From positions 32,001 through 96,000 of the forward strand of contig JBHLOI010000003.1 of NCBI GenBank assembly GCA_048940645.1: 64,000 nt of DNA, read 5' to 3'. Shown piece by piece: positions 31,585-53,832 of this stretch. Numbering within the stretch: position 1 is the stretch's first letter; each line of letters starts with the position of its first letter. Below the pieces are notes generated by a model. It worked only from the letters and a program-made list of their open reading frames with translations, was not told the DNA's origin and did no database searches. Source of the stretch: Promethearchaeota archaeon. Lineage in GTDB: Archaea; Asgardarchaeota; Lokiarchaeia; Sigyniarchaeales; SOKP01. The position numbers and the translations under genes were made by a program.

Positions 31585-32247
31585 TTGGAAACCATATTTA
31601 ATAATATATATCATGTTGGCGATTCAGGTTGTTCGGTGTTTATGGTTGATACAAAAAGTGATGATGGTCTTGTATTAATTGACTGCGGAATGAGTTTTCA
31701 AATGATAAAGAGCATTCAAAATTTTAACTTAGACCCAATGGATATAAAACATTGCATTTTAACCCACTTTCATATTGATCATATCGCAGCTTGTTTTGAA
31801 CTCAAAGAGTATAATACTAAAGTGAAATTCTATGCGCATGAATTAGATGCCAACGCAATAGAAGAAAAGGGCCACAATGGAAAAACAGCCGCTTCTTGGT
31901 ATGGAGTCAATTATAAACCAATTCAATTAGAACGGCATTTTCAATCTGACACTGAAATTTTAAGATTTGGGGATATAGAATTCCAATGCATTCATACTCC
32001 CGGTCATACTCCCGGCTCCATCTCTATTTTTATTGAAATTGAAGGCACTAAAGTCTTATTTGGTCAAGACATTCATGGCCCCTTTATGGCGAGTTTTGGT
32101 TCTAATCTAGTTGATTATCAAAAATCAATGCAAAAATTATTAGAATTAAAGGCTGATATTTTATGTGAAGGACATTTTGGTATTATTAAACCAGCTAGTG
32201 AAGTTGAGCGTTATATTAGAAGTTATATGGCTCAAAATCGCCCTTAA
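31585..32247 (+). CDS. MBL-fold hydrolase (glyoxylase II-like)
   Basis: LIDCG, THFHIDH, HTPGHTPGS, FGQDIHG, LCEGH. Confidence 0.9.
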   Translation: METIFNNIYHVGDSGCSVFMVDTKSDDGLVLIDCGMSFQMIKSIQNFNLDPMDIKHCILTHFHIDHIAACFELKEYNTKVKFYAHELDANAIEEKGHNGKTAASWYGVNYKPIQLERHFQSDTEILRFGDIEFQCIHTPGHTPGSISIFIEIEGTKVLFGQDIHGPFMASFGSNLVDYQKSMQKLLELKADILCEGHFGIIKPASEVERYIRSYMAQNRP

Positions 32248-42330: not shown

Positions 42331-44535
42331 TCATAGAATTCTTTTTAATTCTAAAATCAAATTTTCTGGATTGTATCGGTCGAATTGAAATATCTGAGCT
42401 TTACCAAATTTTTTAAAATTTTTTTTTATTTTATCTGCAGCGTAAGTATTAACCCCTAAAGCTTGGGTGGCGTAACTTTTTTTAGGTTCTAAAACAACAA
42501 CATGAACTCCTTTTTTTGAGAGTACTTTAGTTAACTCTTTTAGCTCCTTGATGATTAGTGTATAATCAGTTTGTATTTGGGCGACTAAATCGGGATATTT
42601 TACAGAGATATTTGATCCACAATCTGAACATATAAAAATAACAGGAATAACATTTCTATTCTTTAACTTTTCAGCATTAATTAACTTAACACACTTTTTT
42701 AGTGCAGCTGCCATGGGAGTATATGATTTTCCTTCAATACTTTTTAGTTTATTAAGAGCGTTTTTAAAATAAACTGTTGGTTTTTGAAGAACGATTGCTT
42801 CTTTACCTCTAAATATAATTAAACTGATTTTATCTCTTTTTCTATATCCTTCCTTATGCAAGGATAAAATTACATCTGTCATCTGTTTTATCACATAATA
42901 CATTGATGCAGAACTATCGAGCACAAAAAAAAGTAAAAGAGGTGCACGATATTCGAAGATTTTATCCATTAAATCATACTTATTGAATTTTATAGGAAAT
43001 TCTATATCTGTTTGATTGTATATTGTGTTTTTCAAATAGTTTCTTATAGTTGCATCCAAAGCTAAACTCTTTGGTTTATCTATTGGGTTTCGATAAGAAA
43101 TATATTTCCCTTTTTGAGAAGATGCTATTTTAATTCGCCTTCCTATACCACGACCCCCATAATTTGAAACTTTTCGTTCTTTTCGGATATTATCAAGAAC
43201 GGAATTCATTTTTTGTTCCATTTTATAAATTAATGGCAATTCCTCAGTTTGGTTTTCAAAAAATTTTAGATCCATCTCTTCAAAAGGAATATTTTTTACT
43301 TTCCAGCCTCCTGCAGGAGCAGGACTCCTTTTTTTGTTATCAGGGTATTTAGGTGGAGGCAATTTTTGTTCTTTAGTCTCCGGCATTTTGACTTTTCTAG
43401 GATCTACTGATTGTCGTTTGAATTCTTTATGCAATGTATCATCCTGTTTTAATGGTCCTTCCGAATCAGGATTAGGCTTATAAGCATTTGGATCCTCATA
43501 TGCTTTTTGTATTTTTCCATAAACTTCTGCAATTTTAGCTTGGATTTCTTTGGGAGTCATCTCATAATGAAGCGACTGAATTCTATGTTCGAAAACTAAA
43601 TCCAAAGCTACATTCAAATCTTCCTCTGTAATTTGTGTTCTACTATTAAAAGCAGCATGAGCTCTAGCACAGCGTATGAAGGTTATATCTGCTCTTTGAG
43701 AAAATATCTCTAATTCATTAACAATCATAGATACAAATTCAAAAACAGATGACGGCACTTTTACTTCTTTTAGTATTTCTCTCGCTTTTTTGATCTTATC
43801 TCGAAGTTCTTCCTCTTCCTTTACGTATTTCTTAATAAATGTCTTTGGGTCATCATCAAATTTGATAACTCGTCTGGTTATTTCTGCTCTTAATTTTGGA
43901 TCTCTTGGTGCTTTTATTTTAACCTCCAAACCAAGACGATCAGCAATTTGGGGTCTTAATTCACCCTCTTCAGGATTCATTGAACCCACTAAAACGAATC
44001 GGGATGGATGCATAACAGAGATTCCTTCTCTTTCAATGATATTTACACCGGAAGCAGCTGCATCTAAGAGAGTATCAACTATATGATCCTGTAGAAGATT
44101 AATTTCATCAATGTAAAGAATCCCGCGATTTGCTTTTGCTAATAACCCTGGATGAAGACTTTTAATACCTTCAGTGAGTACTTTATCGATAGAGAGACTA
44201 CCACAAACCATATCCTCTGTAATTCCTAATGGGAGGTTTACGAGTCTCATTTCACGAGTATGGATTTCTATTTCTCGTTTTCCTTTCTTTATACGACATT
44301 CTTCACATAAATCTTCATTTTCTAAGTGAGGATCACATGAGAATGGACAATCCTTTACAACTTCAATCTCAGGCATAACTTCAACAAGGCTTCTCACGGC
44401 TGTTGATTTTCCTGTGCCTTGTTGTCCTGATAATAATATTCCACCAATTTGTGGGTCAATAACGTTTAGTATAAGCCCCAATTTCATTTTTTCTTGTCCT
44501 AAAATAGCTACGAAAGGAAAGGATGAAATTTTCAT
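42331..44535 (-). CDS. Mg/Co-chelatase-like AAA+ ATPase fused to VWA domain (ChlI-ChlD-like)
   Basis: FPFVAILGQE, GQQGTGKS, PGLLAKANRGILYIDEINLL, GSMNPEEGELRPQ, Pro-rich linker, VWA LDSSASM..TPMA..SD. Confidence 0.88.
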   Translation of the reverse strand: MKISSFPFVAILGQEKMKLGLILNVIDPQIGGILLSGQQGTGKSTAVRSLVEVMPEIEVVKDCPFSCDPHLENEDLCEECRIKKGKREIEIHTREMRLVNLPLGITEDMVCGSLSIDKVLTEGIKSLHPGLLAKANRGILYIDEINLLQDHIVDTLLDAAASGVNIIEREGISVMHPSRFVLVGSMNPEEGELRPQIADRLGLEVKIKAPRDPKLRAEITRRVIKFDDDPKTFIKKYVKEEEELRDKIKKAREILKEVKVPSSVFEFVSMIVNELEIFSQRADITFIRCARAHAAFNSRTQITEEDLNVALDLVFEHRIQSLHYEMTPKEIQAKIAEVYGKIQKAYEDPNAYKPNPDSEGPLKQDDTLHKEFKRQSVDPRKVKMPETKEQKLPPPKYPDNKKRSPAPAGGWKVKNIPFEEMDLKFFENQTEELPLIYKMEQKMNSVLDNIRKERKVSNYGGRGIGRRIKIASSQKGKYISYRNPIDKPKSLALDATIRNYLKNTIYNQTDIEFPIKFNKYDLMDKIFEYRAPLLLFFVLDSSASMYYVIKQMTDVILSLHKEGYRKRDKISLIIFRGKEAIVLQKPTVYFKNALNKLKSIEGKSYTPMAAALKKCVKLINAEKLKNRNVIPVIFICSDCGSNISVKYPDLVAQIQTDYTLIIKELKELTKVLSKKGVHVVVLEPKKSYATQALGVNTYAADKIKKNFKKFGKAQIFQFDRYNPENLILELKRIL

Positions 44536-44676
44536 ATTTTTATTCCAGTTTAAATTGTTTAGTTAGACATTCTTTTAATTAAAATAATATTAAGTAAAAT
44601 AAAGATTTTCCTTTTAAACCTTAGATTAAAAATAGGTTTTATGAAATTAAAATAAAAAAAGAATTCATTCAAGTAT

Positions 44677-45627
44677 TTAAAATTTTTTAGATAATATTGT
44701 TAGTTTTTCGTTGAGATTTGAAACACACTCATCCCATTCTGCCAAAATTTCTTTAATTTTTGGAATGATTAAGTCTCTTTCTTTAAATTCTAAATAATCC
44801 ATAAACTGTTTTATTTTCTCTATTTTTATGAAGGTTTCAGCCACATATTTCCGTATTTCACGATTTTGATTATCTAAAACTTCATGGATTCTATGAGATT
44901 CTCCTTTACGCATCAATGTGGCTAAATATTCTTCAGTACCAAGCAATAATGAGTCTAATTGATTAATTTGGTTTTTTATAAATTTATCATATGTTTCTAA
45001 AATATTATCACTTGGGAAAAAGTTAGTAATATCAATAACAAATTTCTGTGCTTGTATTACTAATTCTTCCATGTTTTCAAATCCCTCAATTCTGTATTCA
45101 ACTTCATGAAATTTACTTCTCTCGTTATTTCCATCATCTAATCTGAAAATTTTAAAACCTGGATCGGCTTTTAACTGTCTTTCTGGATCCCCTTTTCTTT
45201 CTGGATATTCTACCTGTTTAACTAGACGTTCTGGATTAAATACTAAAGAAATAGCTAGGGGATTTAAACTTTGATATGCTACTGTAGTTTTTCTATCACC
45301 AAATCCCGAAAGCATAACTCTAAAGCCCGGATGGCTATGCCACCAACCTATTACATAATCACCTTTATCAAAAGCTTCTTCTTCAATGATTACTGTTGAA
45401 GCATAATCTTCTTCTGACCAGACGTATTTATCAACTATCGCTTTGGGATCATAAATTTCATGCATAATTGGATATGCTTTTGAAATTAATACATCATCAT
45501 TTTGATTTTTGCCAATGAAAATCCCATTTGCTTCTATCCACTTATCTTTTGGTATTTTTTGATTCGCAAACCTCACGCTCGCAGCAATAATTGTTAAGTA
45601 CGCCTGTTTAGGAATAATCACAGTCAT
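44677..45627 (-). CDS. MPN/JAMM domain protein with helical C-terminus (variant spacing)
   Basis: WIEANG, GWWHSHPGFRVMLSGFGD (HSH-x7-S-x3-D), ISLVFNP, GFKIFRL. Confidence 0.85.
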   Translation of the reverse strand: MTVIIPKQAYLTIIAASVRFANQKIPKDKWIEANGIFIGKNQNDDVLISKAYPIMHEIYDPKAIVDKYVWSEEDYASTVIIEEEAFDKGDYVIGWWHSHPGFRVMLSGFGDRKTTVAYQSLNPLAISLVFNPERLVKQVEYPERKGDPERQLKADPGFKIFRLDDGNNERSKFHEVEYRIEGFENMEELVIQAQKFVIDITNFFPSDNILETYDKFIKNQINQLDSLLLGTEEYLATLMRKGESHRIHEVLDNQNREIRKYVAETFIKIEKIKQFMDYLEFKERDLIIPKIKEILAEWDECVSNLNEKLTILSKKF

Positions 45628-46021
45628 GATTTATCTATTTTAAGTTAATGTTCATTCTTGATAATTTTATACCACTGCATATATTTATTTTTATTTTTTT
45701 CTTAAGAATCTTCCAAAATCAATAGGATTCCATTAATTTTCTATTATCATATCAATTCGCTCATAATTTCTGTTAAAAATTTATTTTACTTCTAGCCAGT
45801 CTTCAATATTAGAGAACTTAATCTATTGAAAATGATTAGTAGCTTGTAGGAGATCCAAGATATTAAAAAATAGTAAGAAATTATTAAATTATAATTCTAT
45901 TAGCTCTTTTTCATTTAAAAGATAAAATTATTTATATTCATAATATACCATTATATTATTACTAAATGCAAATTATTACTGATTCCAATATAATTAAAAT
46001 CATCTAAAAGAAAGGATTAAA

Positions 46022-46648
46022 ATGGCTGAAAAAGGTTTTGAACCACTAACAAGTCAACTGGGTATACCAGGGACTTCTTATAGGATTCAGCTGGGATTAA
46101 TTAATGGAAAATGGGCATCAAGACTATTGAAAGGACAAAATGTTATAGATTCATACATTTATAAGGATGAAGATATCGCTGAAGGGGGATTTCCTAATCA
46201 AAATCTCATCGTAGGTTGGGTTTTACGTACTGTGGCAATTCCTAATATAAACCCACATCAAGTAATGAAAACAACTCAAGCTTTGGTGAAACAGGCAATT
46301 GAAAAGAAAGAACAAAAGAAAGTCATGGCCCCCATACAAGAAATTAAAAAGGTTGAATTAGAAAAAGTCCCTGAAAGTGAAATAAAAAGACCTCAATCGG
46401 TGGGATGGGTAAAACAGGAAGGTATTAAGTCAGTACAGGAATTAGAAGAAGAAAAACGCCAAGCCTTTAAAGAAAGAATGGTATATAAGAAACAAGAAGA
46501 AGCAAGAAAATCTGGAACAATCGCAACATCAAGAGAGTTACCTTCTATCCCTAAAGGTGAAGAAGCGCCATCAACATTCTGTCCTCATTGCGGAAAAGAT
46601 TTAGATTGGAAATATTGTCCTTTTTGTGGGGGGAAACTTCCACATTAG
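46022..46648 (+). CDS. Hypothetical protein with C-terminal double zinc ribbon
   Basis: Charged helical middle; CPHCGKDLDWKYCPFCG. Confidence 0.75.
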   Translation: MAEKGFEPLTSQLGIPGTSYRIQLGLINGKWASRLLKGQNVIDSYIYKDEDIAEGGFPNQNLIVGWVLRTVAIPNINPHQVMKTTQALVKQAIEKKEQKKVMAPIQEIKKVELEKVPESEIKRPQSVGWVKQEGIKSVQELEEEKRQAFKERMVYKKQEEARKSGTIATSRELPSIPKGEEAPSTFCPHCGKDLDWKYCPFCGGKLPH

Positions 46649-46768
46649 GAGTAATTTTATAAAATTCTCTAAATTTATTTTTTGTAATACTATAAATTAA
46701 ATTATTCAGTTTTTAAATGAGATAAATTATAAATATGACAAAAATTAACTATATCTAAACGTAATAGA

Positions 46769-48241
46769 TTGAGTGATGAAGTAATGGGCAAGGATACAGA
46801 TACAAGTGTTGTTACCATTAAACCAATGGCCTATTATAAGATGTTAGTTCATGTTCTTAGATTTGGATCAAAAGCACAAGCCATTAACGAATACAAAGAA
46901 GTTATGGGGATGCTAATTGGTCATCTAGAGGGACAGGGTGAAATTAAAGACGTAATCATAGAAGATGTTGTACCTATAACACATGGAGGATCAATTGAAG
47001 TTAAGTTTTCTGCAGAACAGCTTGGTGCTTTTGGAGAAATTGATAGGCAAATCTGGGAACAACATGGTGAAGAGAATTGGTTTAGTGTTGGTTGGTATCA
47101 TAGTCACCCAAATCTGGGAATTTTCTTCTCGAGTACTGATATATTTAATCAGTTATTTTGGCAAGATAAAAATCCTAGCGGTCTAGGAATAGTATTTGAT
47201 CACGCTTATTTGGAAAAACCTGGTGATTTAGGTTTTAAAGTTTATAGATTAGATGATCCTTCAAAAGGATTAAATTCAAAGTATTATGAAGTTAAAGCTA
47301 TAGTAGAGCCACCAGATAGTTTTGAATTTTATGAGAAAATAGTTGATTTGGTAAATAAAATATACTCGAAGGAAGCTCCAATTCTTGAATTAAATGAAAC
47401 TACTGATTTATTTGGTGATGTATTTTTTCCTGAACAGAAACAACTTGAAAGTAAAAAGCCTCAATTATCAGTGCAAGAATTGTTAAATAATTTAAAGAAA
47501 GGGTTTTCAACTTTTATAGATCTATCAATTGAACCTCTTATTGACATACTTAACCTTTGGAGCCAAGATATTGTAAAAAAGATGTTCTACAATAATACAC
47601 AAATGAGAAATGATTTAATTGAAATGAAAGAAAATCTAACCTCGGGCGTAAATGATCTCCAGAAGTCATTTAATTTCTCATTGCAAGACGATTTAAAGAA
47701 ATTGGATTTCTATATTGATGATAAGCTTGATAAACTTGATGAAGGACTGAATAATATGGAAATAGTAATTCATCAGTTTAGAGAGAATCTTACACTACAA
47801 ATAAACCAATTAATTGAAAATACCTTTTTACAAAATGTTAATCAAATTATTGAAAACTTTGATAAGAATCTTGGAGATTTAGATGGAATAAATGAGATGA
47901 ATGAGATGGTTTTACAAACTTTAGAGCCAGAGTATGCTGAATTAGAAAAGTTATTTAATATCATCGATCCTACGAAAAGTAGAATAAAAGGCGCAGTAGA
48001 GGATAATCAAGAGATAATAATAAACAATTTTCGGAAAAAATTATCCAATATTCAAGATATTTTTTCAAATTTAGATAATGATTTAAAAAAACTCCTCTCA
48101 GATCTAAAAGCAGCTATATTAGTTCTCGAGGGTTCTAAAAGTCCTGTTCTAAACAAAATTGAAAAATTAGAGAATGAGAAAAAAAATCTTCATAATACTA
48201 TAAGAGAATTAAAGAATGAAATTAAAGAATTGAAGAAGTGA
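46769..48241 (+). CDS. Rpn11/CSN5-like JAMM (MPN+) metalloprotease with long coiled-coil tail
   Basis: KEVMGMLIG and GWYHSHPNLGIFFSSTD (E..HSH-x7-S-x2-D intact); ~280-aa helical tail. Confidence 0.9.
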   Translation: MSDEVMGKDTDTSVVTIKPMAYYKMLVHVLRFGSKAQAINEYKEVMGMLIGHLEGQGEIKDVIIEDVVPITHGGSIEVKFSAEQLGAFGEIDRQIWEQHGEENWFSVGWYHSHPNLGIFFSSTDIFNQLFWQDKNPSGLGIVFDHAYLEKPGDLGFKVYRLDDPSKGLNSKYYEVKAIVEPPDSFEFYEKIVDLVNKIYSKEAPILELNETTDLFGDVFFPEQKQLESKKPQLSVQELLNNLKKGFSTFIDLSIEPLIDILNLWSQDIVKKMFYNNTQMRNDLIEMKENLTSGVNDLQKSFNFSLQDDLKKLDFYIDDKLDKLDEGLNNMEIVIHQFRENLTLQINQLIENTFLQNVNQIIENFDKNLGDLDGINEMNEMVLQTLEPEYAELEKLFNIIDPTKSRIKGAVEDNQEIIINNFRKKLSNIQDIFSNLDNDLKKLLSDLKAAILVLEGSKSPVLNKIEKLENEKKNLHNTIRELKNEIKELKK

Positions 48242-48253
48242 TAGTGAAATATT

Positions 48254-49654
48254 ATGATAAACACCCCTAACAATAATAAAGAAGAAAAGATCGAGATTGC
48301 AGAAGATTGGAAAGTTTATATAAGAAATAATGCTTTTAGAAAAATGCTTAGTCATATAGTGAGGTTTGCTAATAAATCTTTGGAAGATAATCAAGAGGTC
48401 ATGGGTATTTGTGTAGGTGAAGCAAATTCAGAAGACAAGACTTTAAATTTAATGAATATCATTCCTGTATGTCATGGAGATATCGTAGAACTTGGGTTTT
48501 CTCAAGAGATTCATGAAAAAATTATGAAAATTGAAGAAAAAATTCTTGCTACAAATTTAAAAATGATTGGGTGGTATCATTCGAGACTAAAAGGTGGTCT
48601 TTTCTTTTCTCACGCAGATAGGAGTAATCAATTATATTTTCAAAATGAGAACCACCCATATGGATTTGGAATTGTATTTGATAATAACCTCCTTAATTCT
48701 GGAAATAAATTTGGATTTGAGATTTTTAGACTTAAAACCTTTTCAAAAGGAGTAGACAGTGAATACGTTAAAGTTCCTTTTGAACTTGAAGTACCTAACA
48801 CCTTAGACTTTTTCAAATGGATAAAAGCGCTTGTAGAAGATCTTCAGAGAAAAAATCCTATAATTATCAATGAATTTGATGAAATTAGAAAACCAATGCC
48901 GGGAGAGCTTCAAGAAATCCCAAAAGTAGAAAAGGCCACCACTGAAGGCGGTGACGATGATTTTAATGCTCAAATACAACCAATATTCACGGGTTTTAGA
49001 GAGGGAACTTCACAATTTGTAGAAACTTTTATTGATGCCTATAAAAACCAATTAAGTAATTGGATGATTGATGTTAGAAATGGTTCATTAAGAGGCGTTG
49101 AGCAGATTAGAAGCATTATAAAACAGATGAAAGATTCTTTCGAACAAGGTTTAGAAAATATTCAAAATTACTTTGATAAAAGTTTTTCTGAAATTTCAAA
49201 TGTATTTATCACAGATATTTCAGAATATATTGATAGAAGAGTTGAGACCCAAAAAGAGTTTACAACCAAAGTTTCAGATTTATTCGAAGAAATTTCTGAT
49301 AAAATGCAATCTATAATAGAAAATAATTTAAAAGAATTTACTGATAAGTTAAAAGAAAAAATATCATATGAAGAAGTAAAACTATATAATATTAATCAAA
49401 CAAATACTAAGATAAAACCTTTACTTAATAAATCCTCAGATTTATTAATTAAAACATATAATAATACAAATGCTCTTTCTGATGATCTCTTAAAAGAAAT
49501 TAAAAGCCTAAGTTCAAGGTTTAGTTTAAACTTAAATGAAGAAATTGAAAATCTAAATTTAGATTCTGATCCAATTAAAGAAAAATATAAAGAAATCGAA
49601 GAATTAATTGAACGGCTCCAAAAAGTCATCTCAGACTTTAGGCAATTAAAATAA
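48254..49654 (+). CDS. MPN domain protein with broken JAMM motif (MPN-) and long coiled-coil tail
   Basis: QEVMGICVG, GWYHSRLKGGLFFSHAD (second His replaced by Arg); paralogous to upstream gene. Confidence 0.85.
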   Translation: MINTPNNNKEEKIEIAEDWKVYIRNNAFRKMLSHIVRFANKSLEDNQEVMGICVGEANSEDKTLNLMNIIPVCHGDIVELGFSQEIHEKIMKIEEKILATNLKMIGWYHSRLKGGLFFSHADRSNQLYFQNENHPYGFGIVFDNNLLNSGNKFGFEIFRLKTFSKGVDSEYVKVPFELEVPNTLDFFKWIKALVEDLQRKNPIIINEFDEIRKPMPGELQEIPKVEKATTEGGDDDFNAQIQPIFTGFREGTSQFVETFIDAYKNQLSNWMIDVRNGSLRGVEQIRSIIKQMKDSFEQGLENIQNYFDKSFSEISNVFITDISEYIDRRVETQKEFTTKVSDLFEEISDKMQSIIENNLKEFTDKLKEKISYEEVKLYNINQTNTKIKPLLNKSSDLLIKTYNNTNALSDDLLKEIKSLSSRFSLNLNEEIENLNLDSDPIKEKYKEIEELIERLQKVISDFRQLK

Positions 49655-49692
49655 TAAATAGAAATTATTTAATACTACTTCTTTAATCTATA

Positions 49693-50007
49693 TTAGAAAA
49701 ATTCTAATGAAGATACAGAGGATATATTTAATTTATACTTAGGGATATTAGTATTGAGTCTTTTTAATTGGTTTCTTTTTGCTATATTACTTAATATCCT
49801 TCCAATTCTATCAACTCTAATATCAATTCCATAATTTTCTTTCAAAACAGAATTAATTTTATAAGAAGAAAGTATAACTACTTCTGAAATGTTTTTTTCA
49901 CATAGCCTTTCAATTGCTTGTTTCACTAATTTTAAGATTGTTTCTTTATTAGGTTGATTCTCCATGCTCATATTAATATTATATTTGAAGATTTTTAAAA
50001 TTTTCAT
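49693..50007 (-). CDS. Small basic, probable winged-helix protein
   Basis: SSYKINSVL..IRVDRIGRILSNIAK..PKYKL; the true start is likely the downstream MENQ. Confidence 0.55.
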   Translation of the reverse strand: MKILKIFKYNINMSMENQPNKETILKLVKQAIERLCEKNISEVVILSSYKINSVLKENYGIDIRVDRIGRILSNIAKRNQLKRLNTNIPKYKLNISSVSSLEFF

Positions 50008-50145
50008 CTATAAAATTTGATTTCCTATTTTGAAAGGCCTTTTATTATTAAAATGAACTTAAAAGTATACTAATTTATAAAAGAAAAAAATCATTTATAT
50101 TAACTTAAATTAAGCACCATCACTAATCTAAATATTCTTTTTACT

Positions 50146-52560: not shown

Positions 52561-53832
52561 TTGGTATTTAATAAAATTAAAGAAAGTATTACAAGGACAT
52601 TTTTGGGATTATCTTCTTTTCAAATTCTAGTTATGTTTAGAAGAGGATTGTTTTACACCTATTTATCAATTTATATGAGAGATTTTTTGCTACTTTCTGT
52701 AACAGAAACTACTCTCTATGCTACATTGCCAATGATTATGAGTGTCACATTTCAAAATTTTATATGGGGACCATTATCAGATAAAATCCAACGAAGACGG
52801 GTATTAATAATCTTAGGGGAAATTATAGCGGGTGGTGGTACCATTTTGGTATGGGGTATTCACTCAATATTCGCAAATCTCTATATTGCGGGTTATATTA
52901 TTATTATTGGATTATCATGTATTGAAATCTTTTGGAGCATGTCTAATATTGGATGGAGTGCACTTATTAGTGATGTTTATTCACCAGAGGATAGAAATAG
53001 GATAATGGGGCAATTAACCAGTGTTGGCGGACTTGGCCGTATGATTGGAATATTAATAGGAGGTTATCTCTATGATAGTGGTTTAGGCTTTCGCAATGGC
53101 CCATTGTTTTTTGTAGCTTCATTTGTCATGTTTATTTCAACAATTCCAATGTTACTTGCTCCAGAAGGAGGAAAATATCAAATAGAATTTAAAAAAGATG
53201 AAATAAACAAAAATAAAAGAAAAAAAAGTAATTATAAGGTTGTTTTCATCATTTTTATAACTGCTTTAGTTTTTATAAATTTCGGCAGGAATAGTATTTC
53301 TGTTCCCTATTCACAATATTTAGTTTTAGAAAGTGGTTTTAATGTTAATGATATTATGTTAAGTTTTATTGCAAATACTCGCTCCTTAGCAGTGTTAACA
53401 ATCGGATTAATTGCTGGGCTGTTGAGTAAGAAATTAGGTTATTCTAAAACGCTTGTTTTTGGAACTATTTCTGCAATAGTTGCTTTACTAATTACAGCTC
53501 TAAGTTCAAATTTATTTTTAATTTTCGTAGGTAGTTTTTTAATTGGTACTTCTGATGTTATAATTAAAGCAACTTCATATACTATAGCTTCAAAATTAAT
53601 CCCTACAAAAATACGTGGGAGGTTATTTGGAGTTTATAACACAACTTTTTTCCTTTCATGGGGCCTAGCATGCACTTTAATAACAGGACCAGTTATAGAC
53701 CTCTTAATTTTTAATGGGTTTGGAGAAATTTTTGCATATCAAATCGCTTTTATAGTAGGTGCTTTAATAACTGGAATTGGATTGCTAATATTTGTATTAT
53801 TAGAATTCTGGTTAAAAATTAAAAAAAATTAA
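52561..53832 (+). CDS. MFS transporter
   Basis: WGPLSDKIQRRR motif A, 12 TM helices, RGRLFG. Confidence 0.92.
   Translation: MVFNKIKESITRTFLGLSSFQILVMFRRGLFYTYLSIYMRDFLLLSVTETTLYATLPMIMSVTFQNFIWGPLSDKIQRRRVLIILGEIIAGGGTILVWGIHSIFANLYIAGYIIIIGLSCIEIFWSMSNIGWSALISDVYSPEDRNRIMGQLTSVGGLGRMIGILIGGYLYDSGLGFRNGPLFFVASFVMFISTIPMLLAPEGGKYQIEFKKDEINKNKRKKSNYKVVFIIFITALVFINFGRNSISVPYSQYLVLESGFNVNDIMLSFIANTRSLAVLTIGLIAGLLSKKLGYSKTLVFGTISAIVALLITALSSNLFLIFVGSFLIGTSDVIIKATSYTIASKLIPTKIRGRLFGVYNTTFFLSWGLACTLITGPVIDLLIFNGFGEIFAYQIAFIVGALITGIGLLIFVLLEFWLKIKKN

Follow-up and report, generated by a model that had tools for sequence, protein, structure and literature searches.

Tandem MPN genes with long helical tails in one lokiarchaeal order: a conserved JAMM site in the first copy and recurrent decay of the site in the second

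The window analysed here is a stretch of 64,000 nucleotides from a Promethearchaeota archaeon (GTDB lineage Archaea; Asgardarchaeota; Lokiarchaeia; Sigyniarchaeales; SOKP01), comprising positions 32,001 to 96,000 of the forward strand of contig JBHLOI010000003.1 (assembly GCA_048940645.1). Within it we examined two adjacent genes, designated A and B, each of which encodes an MPN domain followed by a long helical tail. A has a complete JAMM active-site motif (MPN+), and the motif of B is degenerate (MPN−). Heterodimers of an MPN+ and an MPN− protein are the catalytic cores of the proteasome lid, the COP9 signalosome (CSN) and BRISC. The coordinates of A, B and the genes around them are collected in Table 1.

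Table 1. Features of the A-B locus; positions are those of the window, and residue numbers are those of the encoded proteins.
Feature	Position	Strand	Basis or remarks
Fused ChlI/ChlD-type AAA+ plus vWA protein, 734 aa, downstream of C	42331..44535	-	Pfam Mg_chelatase, AAA_lid_2, VWA_2
Gene C, third MPN paralogue, 316 aa, shorter helical tail	44677..45627	-	PF01398, 28.3 bits
Zinc-ribbon gene, 208 aa: N-terminal domain without assigned family, charged linker, C-terminal zinc ribbon	46022..46648	+	Weak zinc-ribbon Pfam hits
Gene A, MPN+ (JAMM) protein, long helical tail	46769..48241	+	Open reading frame; PF01398; 490 aa from TTG
A, MPN domain, residues 14-200	46808..47368	+	AlphaFold2, pLDDT mostly 75-90
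A, catalytic Glu E44	46898-46900	+	Sequence
A, HSH-x7-S-x2-D of the JAMM motif (H111, H113, S121, D124)	47099..47140	+	Sequence
A, helical tail, residues 245-489, one continuous helix in the model	47501..48235	+	AlphaFold2, pLDDT ~80-90
A-B spacer, 12 bp	48242..48253	+	Sequence
Gene B, degenerate MPN protein, 466 aa, homologous helical tail	48254..49654	+	Open reading frame; PF01398
B, degenerate motif H109-S-R111...S119..D122	48578..48619	+	AGA (Arg) codon 48584-48586
B, helical tail, residues 234-465	48953..49648	+	AlphaFold2, helices 234-296, 301-436, 439-465
ORF of 104 aa downstream of B	49693-50007	-	No Pfam/NCBIfam match; conserved beside B
Polytopic membrane protein, 773 aa	50146-52467	+	No Pfam/NCBIfam match; conserved beside B
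Major facilitator superfamily (MFS) transporter	52561-53832	+	After the membrane protein

An earlier note, made from the letters of the window alone, had read A and B as paralogous genes 12 bp apart with shared sequence blocks, the first of them with a complete JAMM motif; both statements are borne out. The two open reading frames (ORFs) lie at that distance, and BLASTP aligned their products with E = 6e-39 and 27% identity over 398 residues, an alignment that takes in some 200 residues of the tail besides the MPN domain and the helix that follows it. The blocks common to the two proteins are EVMG, GWYHS, G(L/F)GIVFD and GF(K/E)(V/I)(Y/F)RL. The tabulated frame of A opens with TTG; the likelier start is the ATG at 46784 (485 aa), and the consensus of the orthologues begins MGK. 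A matched PF01398 (JAB) with 45.7 bits (curated cut-off 22.5) and B with 50.7 bits, which places the MPN fold in A and shows it to be kept in B; both proteins scored higher with PF01398 than with Prok-JAB. The motif E...HxH-x7-S-x2-D is complete in A (E44, H111-S-H113, S121, D124). B reads E48, H109-S-R111, S119 and D122: the second zinc-binding His is replaced by Arg at residue 111, and with this loss of a zinc-binding residue B is classed as a pseudo-enzyme. The Arg codon had been held not to be a base-call error, and this is correct because the same Arg is found in 19 protein clusters from other assemblies.

AlphaFold2 models of A and B, built with family alignments, have the same plan: an MPN domain (residues 20-198 in B, predicted local distance difference test score, pLDDT, ~80-93), a linker of 25-35 residues (low-confidence residues 210-243 in A, residues 200-234 in B) and a near-unbroken helix of about 230-245 residues. 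The earlier description of the tails as coiled coils of about 250-280 aa stands in part. They are helical over about 230-245 residues (265-290 with the linker), but the hydrophobic period is 3.6 in A and 3.65 in B, and not the 3.5 of a canonical heptad. Within and beside the linkers a few residues are invariant, namely E207, N209, E210 and P231 among A residues 199-233 (~47363-47467; low confidence in the model), and E207, E210, L219, I222 and P223 among B residues ~199-223. By their conservation these residues look like a short partner-binding motif.

The closest solved relatives of A by sequence are CsRpn11 (6fjv, E = 1.9e-08), BRCC36, Rpn11 and CSN5. Foldseek, given the A model, placed BRCC36 first (6h3c_B and 6gvw_B, with about 300 aligned columns that include the C-terminal helix), followed by Rpn11 (4o8x_B, template modelling score 0.72 by target) and CSN5, with probability 1.00. 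A is presumably a zinc-dependent JAMM isopeptidase that removes ubiquitin or a ubiquitin-like modifier.

Decay of the B active site and retention of the B protein

A search of 5.8 billion proteins for relatives of A and B yielded 91 B clusters and 300 A clusters, and the best 120 of the latter were used. Nearly all are from metagenome-assembled genomes (MAGs) of the Promethearchaeota/Lokiarchaeota type, and in a cluster tree rooted on the third paralogue of the locus, C, the two proteins are resolved as distinct clades, with a support of 99 for the A clade and 94 for the B clade. The pentad of motif residues (E/H/H/S/D) was intact in each of these 120 full-length A clusters. For B the reading was complete in 90 clusters, and 74 of these carry lesions: 47 clusters read QHHSD, 19 EHRSD, 4 ELHSD, 2 EHRTA and 1 GHHSD, and 16 are intact. 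The same asymmetry was found when loci were counted instead of clusters. A survey of one genome per species (38 species of many genera), which avoids counting near-identical metagenome clusters, found A intact in 40 of 40 copies and B with lesions at 28 of 38 loci, in about 20 combinations, the remainder being intact (8 loci) or EHHTD (2 loci). In a second survey of 80 loci, which partly overlaps the first, A was intact in 73 of 73 and B had lesions in 54 of 79. Over the surveys the Glu of B is exchanged for Q, N, D, A or K, the first His for S, L, I, V or C, and the second His for R, N or I.

The earlier note had looked to conservation of the His loss across Asgard genomes, and here the result is divided. 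The change of His to Arg is confined to B proteins at least 65% identical to that of the window, plus one separate small group; both His residues are kept in 70 of the 91 B clusters, so that the refuting observation named in the earlier note, a majority of second-gene orthologues with HSH, was in fact made, taken to the letter. Most copies that keep them have Gln in place of the catalytic Glu, and in other B lineages the first His, the Ser or the Asp is lost, so that the B site is degenerate by lesions other than the one seen in the window. Even within the genus of the window the B motif reads EHHSD, QHHSD (in two clades), EVHTD or EHRSD. In the B tree the basal branches are intact (family f3 and loci L011/L036 and L012/L019); parsimony requires at least five changes of state, and there are about ten separate lesion clades if loss is taken to be irreversible. 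Because the early-branching copies are intact, the B site must have been lost repeatedly. By this reading of the motifs, degeneration of the B active site is general and recurrent, and the His-to-Arg change is only its local version.

The B protein has been retained throughout. In eight pairs of close species the ratio of nonsynonymous to synonymous substitution rates (dN/dS) of B was 0.11-0.36, with its MPN domain mostly at 0.12-0.28; A gave 0.06-0.27 in the same comparison. B frames are intact and free of internal stops in about 80 species, their length after the motif is constant (348-362 residues), and a match to B was found in 134 of 134 genomes of the family to which the window belongs. 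B evolves faster than A, the median identity to the window protein being 42% for the MPN domain of B versus 63% for that of A. Taken at the level of codons and frames, B is under purifying selection, for what would be a non-catalytic role, and is not a pseudogene.

Linkage of the pair in relatives, the other conservation that had been looked for, proved to be complete: in 75 of 75 loci that hold both genes, B comes immediately after A on the same strand. The spacer measures -11 to 17 bp in 36 of 38 relatives, the exceptions being one 57-bp gap and one 6-kb insertion (locus L021, G174:C10:40500-58500, where about 6 kb take the place of a few bases). Two further loci are peculiar in another way. 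At G205:C2:114492-115847 and G206:C58:2962-4317 the B match lies in an open frame of 943-975 aa with one or two in-frame TAG codons, and A and B share one frame, parted only by TAG. One B homologue (locus L124) is on contig DATKTW010000008.1, which is assigned to a MAG named 'Candidatus Nanopelagicaceae bacterium', most likely through faulty binning and not because bacteria have a copy.

Proposed pairing of A and B and alternative roles

We think it probable that A and B derive from a duplicated MPN-stalk isopeptidase of which A is the catalytic copy, and that B is made together with A and kept non-catalytically, most likely as the partner of A, with its own site free to decay. In the proposed course of events, the gene for a presumed MPN+ isopeptidase with a helical stalk of about 240 residues was duplicated in the ancestor of one lokiarchaeal order; A would have stayed the catalytic subunit, and B started with an intact site and then lost catalytic residues repeatedly and independently, in the window by replacement of the second zinc-binding His with Arg. 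The two proteins would be made together and would most likely pair by way of the MPN domains and of helical tails lying parallel. The product would be a heterodimer with one active site, in which B may serve as scaffold, activator or positioner of the substrate, comparable to the parts played by Rpn8, CSN6 and Abraxas/KIAA0157 for Rpn11, CSN5 and BRCC36.

Pairing was assessed by predicting the A-B complex from full-length chains with alignments. The interface score ipSAE was 0.57 (runs 0.51-0.62), compared with 0.00 for the best of three controls; the runs agreed in at least 45% of contacts, and the pLDDT of the partner was at least 66. In calibration, 58 of 80 solved complexes attained the pass mark, and so did 2 of 110 mismatched pairs; both of these mismatches, but only 7 of the 80 solved complexes, passed with a score of 0.60 or below. 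The predicted complex thus lends weak support to heterodimerisation of A and B.

Several observations weigh against an A-B heterodimer with one live site, or against its proposed form. The ipSAE pass may reflect model memory of solved MPN dimers, and the prediction cannot tell A-B from A-A or B-B. The length after the motif is 368-511 residues in A versus 348-362 in B, with no covariation between the two (r = 0.03), and therefore in-register pairing along the whole tails cannot hold for every species; the covariation of length expected under strict in-register pairing was not found. The hydrophobic period of the tails given above departs from the heptad, and the tails have weak matches to apolipoprotein- and phasin-like helices; it is possible that they form a helical bundle or act at a membrane surface instead of forming a two-stranded coiled coil. 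About a quarter to a third of species have an intact B, and therefore a dead partner is not required for function. C, an intact MPN paralogue encoded in the same cluster, could be what A, or B, actually pairs with. There is no ubiquitin, E1 or E2 gene in the cluster.

Some of the same observations suit an arrangement in which A and B act separately, as homo-oligomers of their own or with other partners. B would then be a non-catalytic receptor for ubiquitin or a ubiquitin-like protein, or a stalk protein, and the linkage would reflect only co-regulation. The fixed tail length of B beside the variable one of A, the 25-30% or so of species with an intact B and the weakness of the heterodimer prediction are all in keeping with this, as is the fact that solitary relatives with an MPN domain and a tail evidently work without a paralogous partner. 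We nevertheless regard separate roles, the strongest of the alternatives, as rather unlikely. The invariable order of A before B, with short or overlapping spacers, suggests coupled synthesis; B has lost catalysis repeatedly, A and C not once, a pattern consistent with a single site sufficing in a shared complex; and to our knowledge every well-studied MPN− protein that arose from an MPN+ paralogue is the partner of an MPN+ protein. Rpn8 and Rpn11 form such a partnership (PMC6043591).

A second alternative concerns the tails only, and it is compatible with a heterodimer: they may be amphipathic helices of the apolipoprotein or phasin kind that lie on a membrane or lipid surface, or folded bundles, and would hold the MPN heads at the membrane. 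The hydrophobic period of 3.6-3.65 goes together with a strong autocorrelation at lag 11; weak matches were obtained to Apolipoprotein, Phasin_2, YtxH, ApoA-IV and apolipophorin-III, and a polytopic membrane protein is a conserved neighbour. However, these matches are of a low-complexity type and fall below the family cut-offs, AlphaFold2 draws one straight helix at pLDDT 80-90 with no hairpins, and the heptad phase in A is stable over residues ~350-395 and 420-470. We judge the membrane alternative improbable.

That B is a decaying duplicate on its way to a pseudogene, as the faster evolution of its MPN domain might suggest, or else is still active despite the substitution, is very unlikely. 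Decay is contradicted by the low dN/dS, by the intact frames of constant length and by the presence of B in every genome of the family. As to activity, Arg cannot take over the role of a His that binds zinc, and the JAMM enzymes Rpn11 and CSN5 are inactivated by His-to-Ala mutation.

Origin of the pair and likeness to known systems

The joint tree recovers A and B as sister clades (91 in the Shimodaira-Hasegawa-like approximate likelihood ratio test, SH-aLRT), each with members from families f1, f2 and f3, and solitary proteins fall outside both. In families f4-f7, which belong to the same order and class, an MPN domain with a long helix occurs only in such solitary proteins (472-597 aa, HxH intact), which have no tandem partner and none of the genes of the cluster; they are probably the state before duplication. 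Of the f3 genomes, four (G132, G133, G134 and G144) carry the tandem, and three complete single-contig genomes lack it. B, searched as a single sequence or as a family profile, matched only MPN+ chains in the PDB (BRCC36, Rpn11, CSN5, CsRpn11 and AMSH), with BRCC36 as the best match; Rpn8, CSN6 and Abraxas were never matched in these sequence and profile searches.

On this evidence from trees and profiles, the A-B duplication is specific to one lokiarchaeal order (families f1-f3) and took place after the gain of the tail. A and B are sisters and the nearest solved relatives of B are all MPN+, and therefore the likeness of the pair to Rpn11-Rpn8 and BRCC36-Abraxas is read as convergent and not as ancestral. 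The earlier note had allowed either origin; of its two options the convergent one is upheld by the separate, lineage-specific duplication, and the ancestral one is disfavoured. Least credible of all the alternatives is thus that the pair is the direct forerunner of Rpn11-Rpn8, CSN5-CSN6 and BRCC36-Abraxas: the MPN domains of A and B are eukaryote-like in their PF01398 scores and in their nearest solved structures, but the two proteins are closest to each other and have in common a tail that is absent from eukaryotic MPN proteins, the duplication is found only in f1-f3 and is surrounded by families with solitary genes, and the basal B copies are intact, so that inactivation postdates the duplication.

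The eukaryotic pairs remain useful for comparison. In BRCC36-Abraxas/KIAA0157 (the cores of BRISC and BRCA1-A), as in A-B, an MPN+ enzyme stands beside an MPN− protein and each MPN domain is followed by a C-terminal helix, an arrangement that A and B repeat with long helices whose lengths do not covary. The tails of A and B, at about 230-245 residues, exceed the helices of that pair several-fold in length; the two genes are sister paralogues of recent date and not orthologues of BRCC36 and Abraxas, and no counterparts of the other BRISC subunits were identified for A-B. Rpn11-Rpn8 and CSN5-CSN6 likewise combine a catalytic JAMM subunit with a site-dead paralogue, and the predicted fold of A is near those of Rpn11 and CSN5. 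The A-B cluster, however, is without PCI-domain genes, A and B lack a C-terminal domain of the MitMem_reg type, and the duplication is independent; Rpn8 and CSN6 have lost nearly all motif residues, whereas B keeps most of them.

Among archaeal proteins, CsRpn11 of Caldiarchaeum subterraneum (6fjv) and the Rpn11-like JAMMs of Asgard ubiquitin operons have a eukaryote-like JAMM, as does A. CsRpn11 is a small stand-alone protein encoded beside ubiquitin, E1, E2 and E3 genes, whereas A has a long stalk and a degenerate partner gene, and there are no ubiquitin-system genes in its cluster. The solitary Asgard proteins with an MPN domain and a long helix have the same architecture as A and B, to which they form the outgroup, but are single genes with neither a tandem partner nor a conserved cluster. 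An organisation of the Rpn11-Rpn8 type has been stated not to be known in archaea (Fuchs et al. 2018, PMC6043591), and no description of an Asgard MPN+/MPN− pair was found in the full-text literature, subscription journals not being covered.

A more far-reaching version of the heterodimer reading may be put forward tentatively. Lokiarchaeia may have independently re-invented an obligate MPN+/MPN− deubiquitylase heterodimer, with all stages preserved in living lineages and with the dead subunit activating or positioning its live partner on a stalk some 35 nm long. The series would start with solitary, homodimeric MPN-stalk enzymes and pass by way of duplicated genes whose two sites are both live to pairs with a B that has died in about ten ways. 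If true, the series would amount to a natural experiment in how duplication followed by one-sided loss of catalysis could have produced the cores of the proteasome lid, the CSN and BRISC. The decay is one-sided and recurrent and the protein is kept, and thus the origin of pseudo-enzyme partners becomes directly testable with natural pairs of live and dead B. An MPN head on a very long helical stalk is, moreover, a new architecture in the ubiquitin-related repertoire of Asgard archaea. The logic of an MPN+/MPN− pair is already familiar; what is new here is the independent origin, the stalk architecture and the clear inactivation series, within the bounds of a single order.

Neighbouring genes and genome context

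The gene order around the pair is conserved across the family: AAA+-vWA (-), C (-), zinc ribbon (+), A (+), B (+), the 104-aa ORF (-), the 773-aa membrane protein (+) and the MFS transporter (+). At nearly all loci of the family the gene immediately before A is the zinc-ribbon gene, which probably heads an operon made up of itself, A and B. The sequencing runs listed for 44600-50100 are sediment DNA metagenomes only, with no RNA run. At one locus of the sister family f3 (L029) the pair is likewise followed by a homologue of the membrane protein. NCBIfam assigned none of A, B, C, the zinc-ribbon protein, the 104-aa ORF and the membrane protein to a family; in the ESM Atlas the zinc-ribbon protein retrieved nothing beyond its own cluster, and no usable match came up for the C-terminal half of the membrane protein.

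C, transcribed divergently from A and B, shows the strongest conservation among the three MPN genes, with about 60% identity within the family. Its JAMM motif is intact, with S-x3-D spacing in this genome; over 27 loci it reads EHHSD in 24 and EHHTD in 3, with a length after the motif of 222-227 aa. The AAA+-vWA protein downstream of C scored 589 bits with TIGR02442, below the cut-off of 779, and keeps its position within the family; it is a putative cobaltochelatase-like protein and is regarded as a syntenic neighbour, not as part of the system. A set resembling a proteasome cap (AAA+, vWA and MPN proteins) was considered and set aside as unsupported, the protein being of the ChlI/ChlD type (TIGR02442-like) and its synteny not traceable outside the family.

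Partners with a PCI domain were also sought. Seven proteins of the cluster, all but the MFS transporter, were scanned against Pfam and gave no PCI match; the PCI-like hits of the genome are on contigs C123, C69, C77 and C76 and not on C54, the contig of the pair, and nearby PCI partners were thus rejected. Two of these hits are large frames, C123:800-1693 (802 aa) and C69:90090-91457 (1487 aa), each with several PCI-like winged-helix matches; three of the matches are above the Pfam cut-off, and they are unlinked to the MPN cluster.

The ubiquitin-like and E2 genes of the genome are on other contigs (C80 and C60), with MPN genes of their own. Four more PF01398 genes are present in all, on contigs C80, C60, C40 and C69: the one on C80 (279 aa) lies beside a ubiquitin-like and an E2 gene, and the one on C60 (173 aa) beside an E2-like gene. 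Two long PF01398 genes of this genome (531 and 417 aa) may be further MPN-stalk paralogues.

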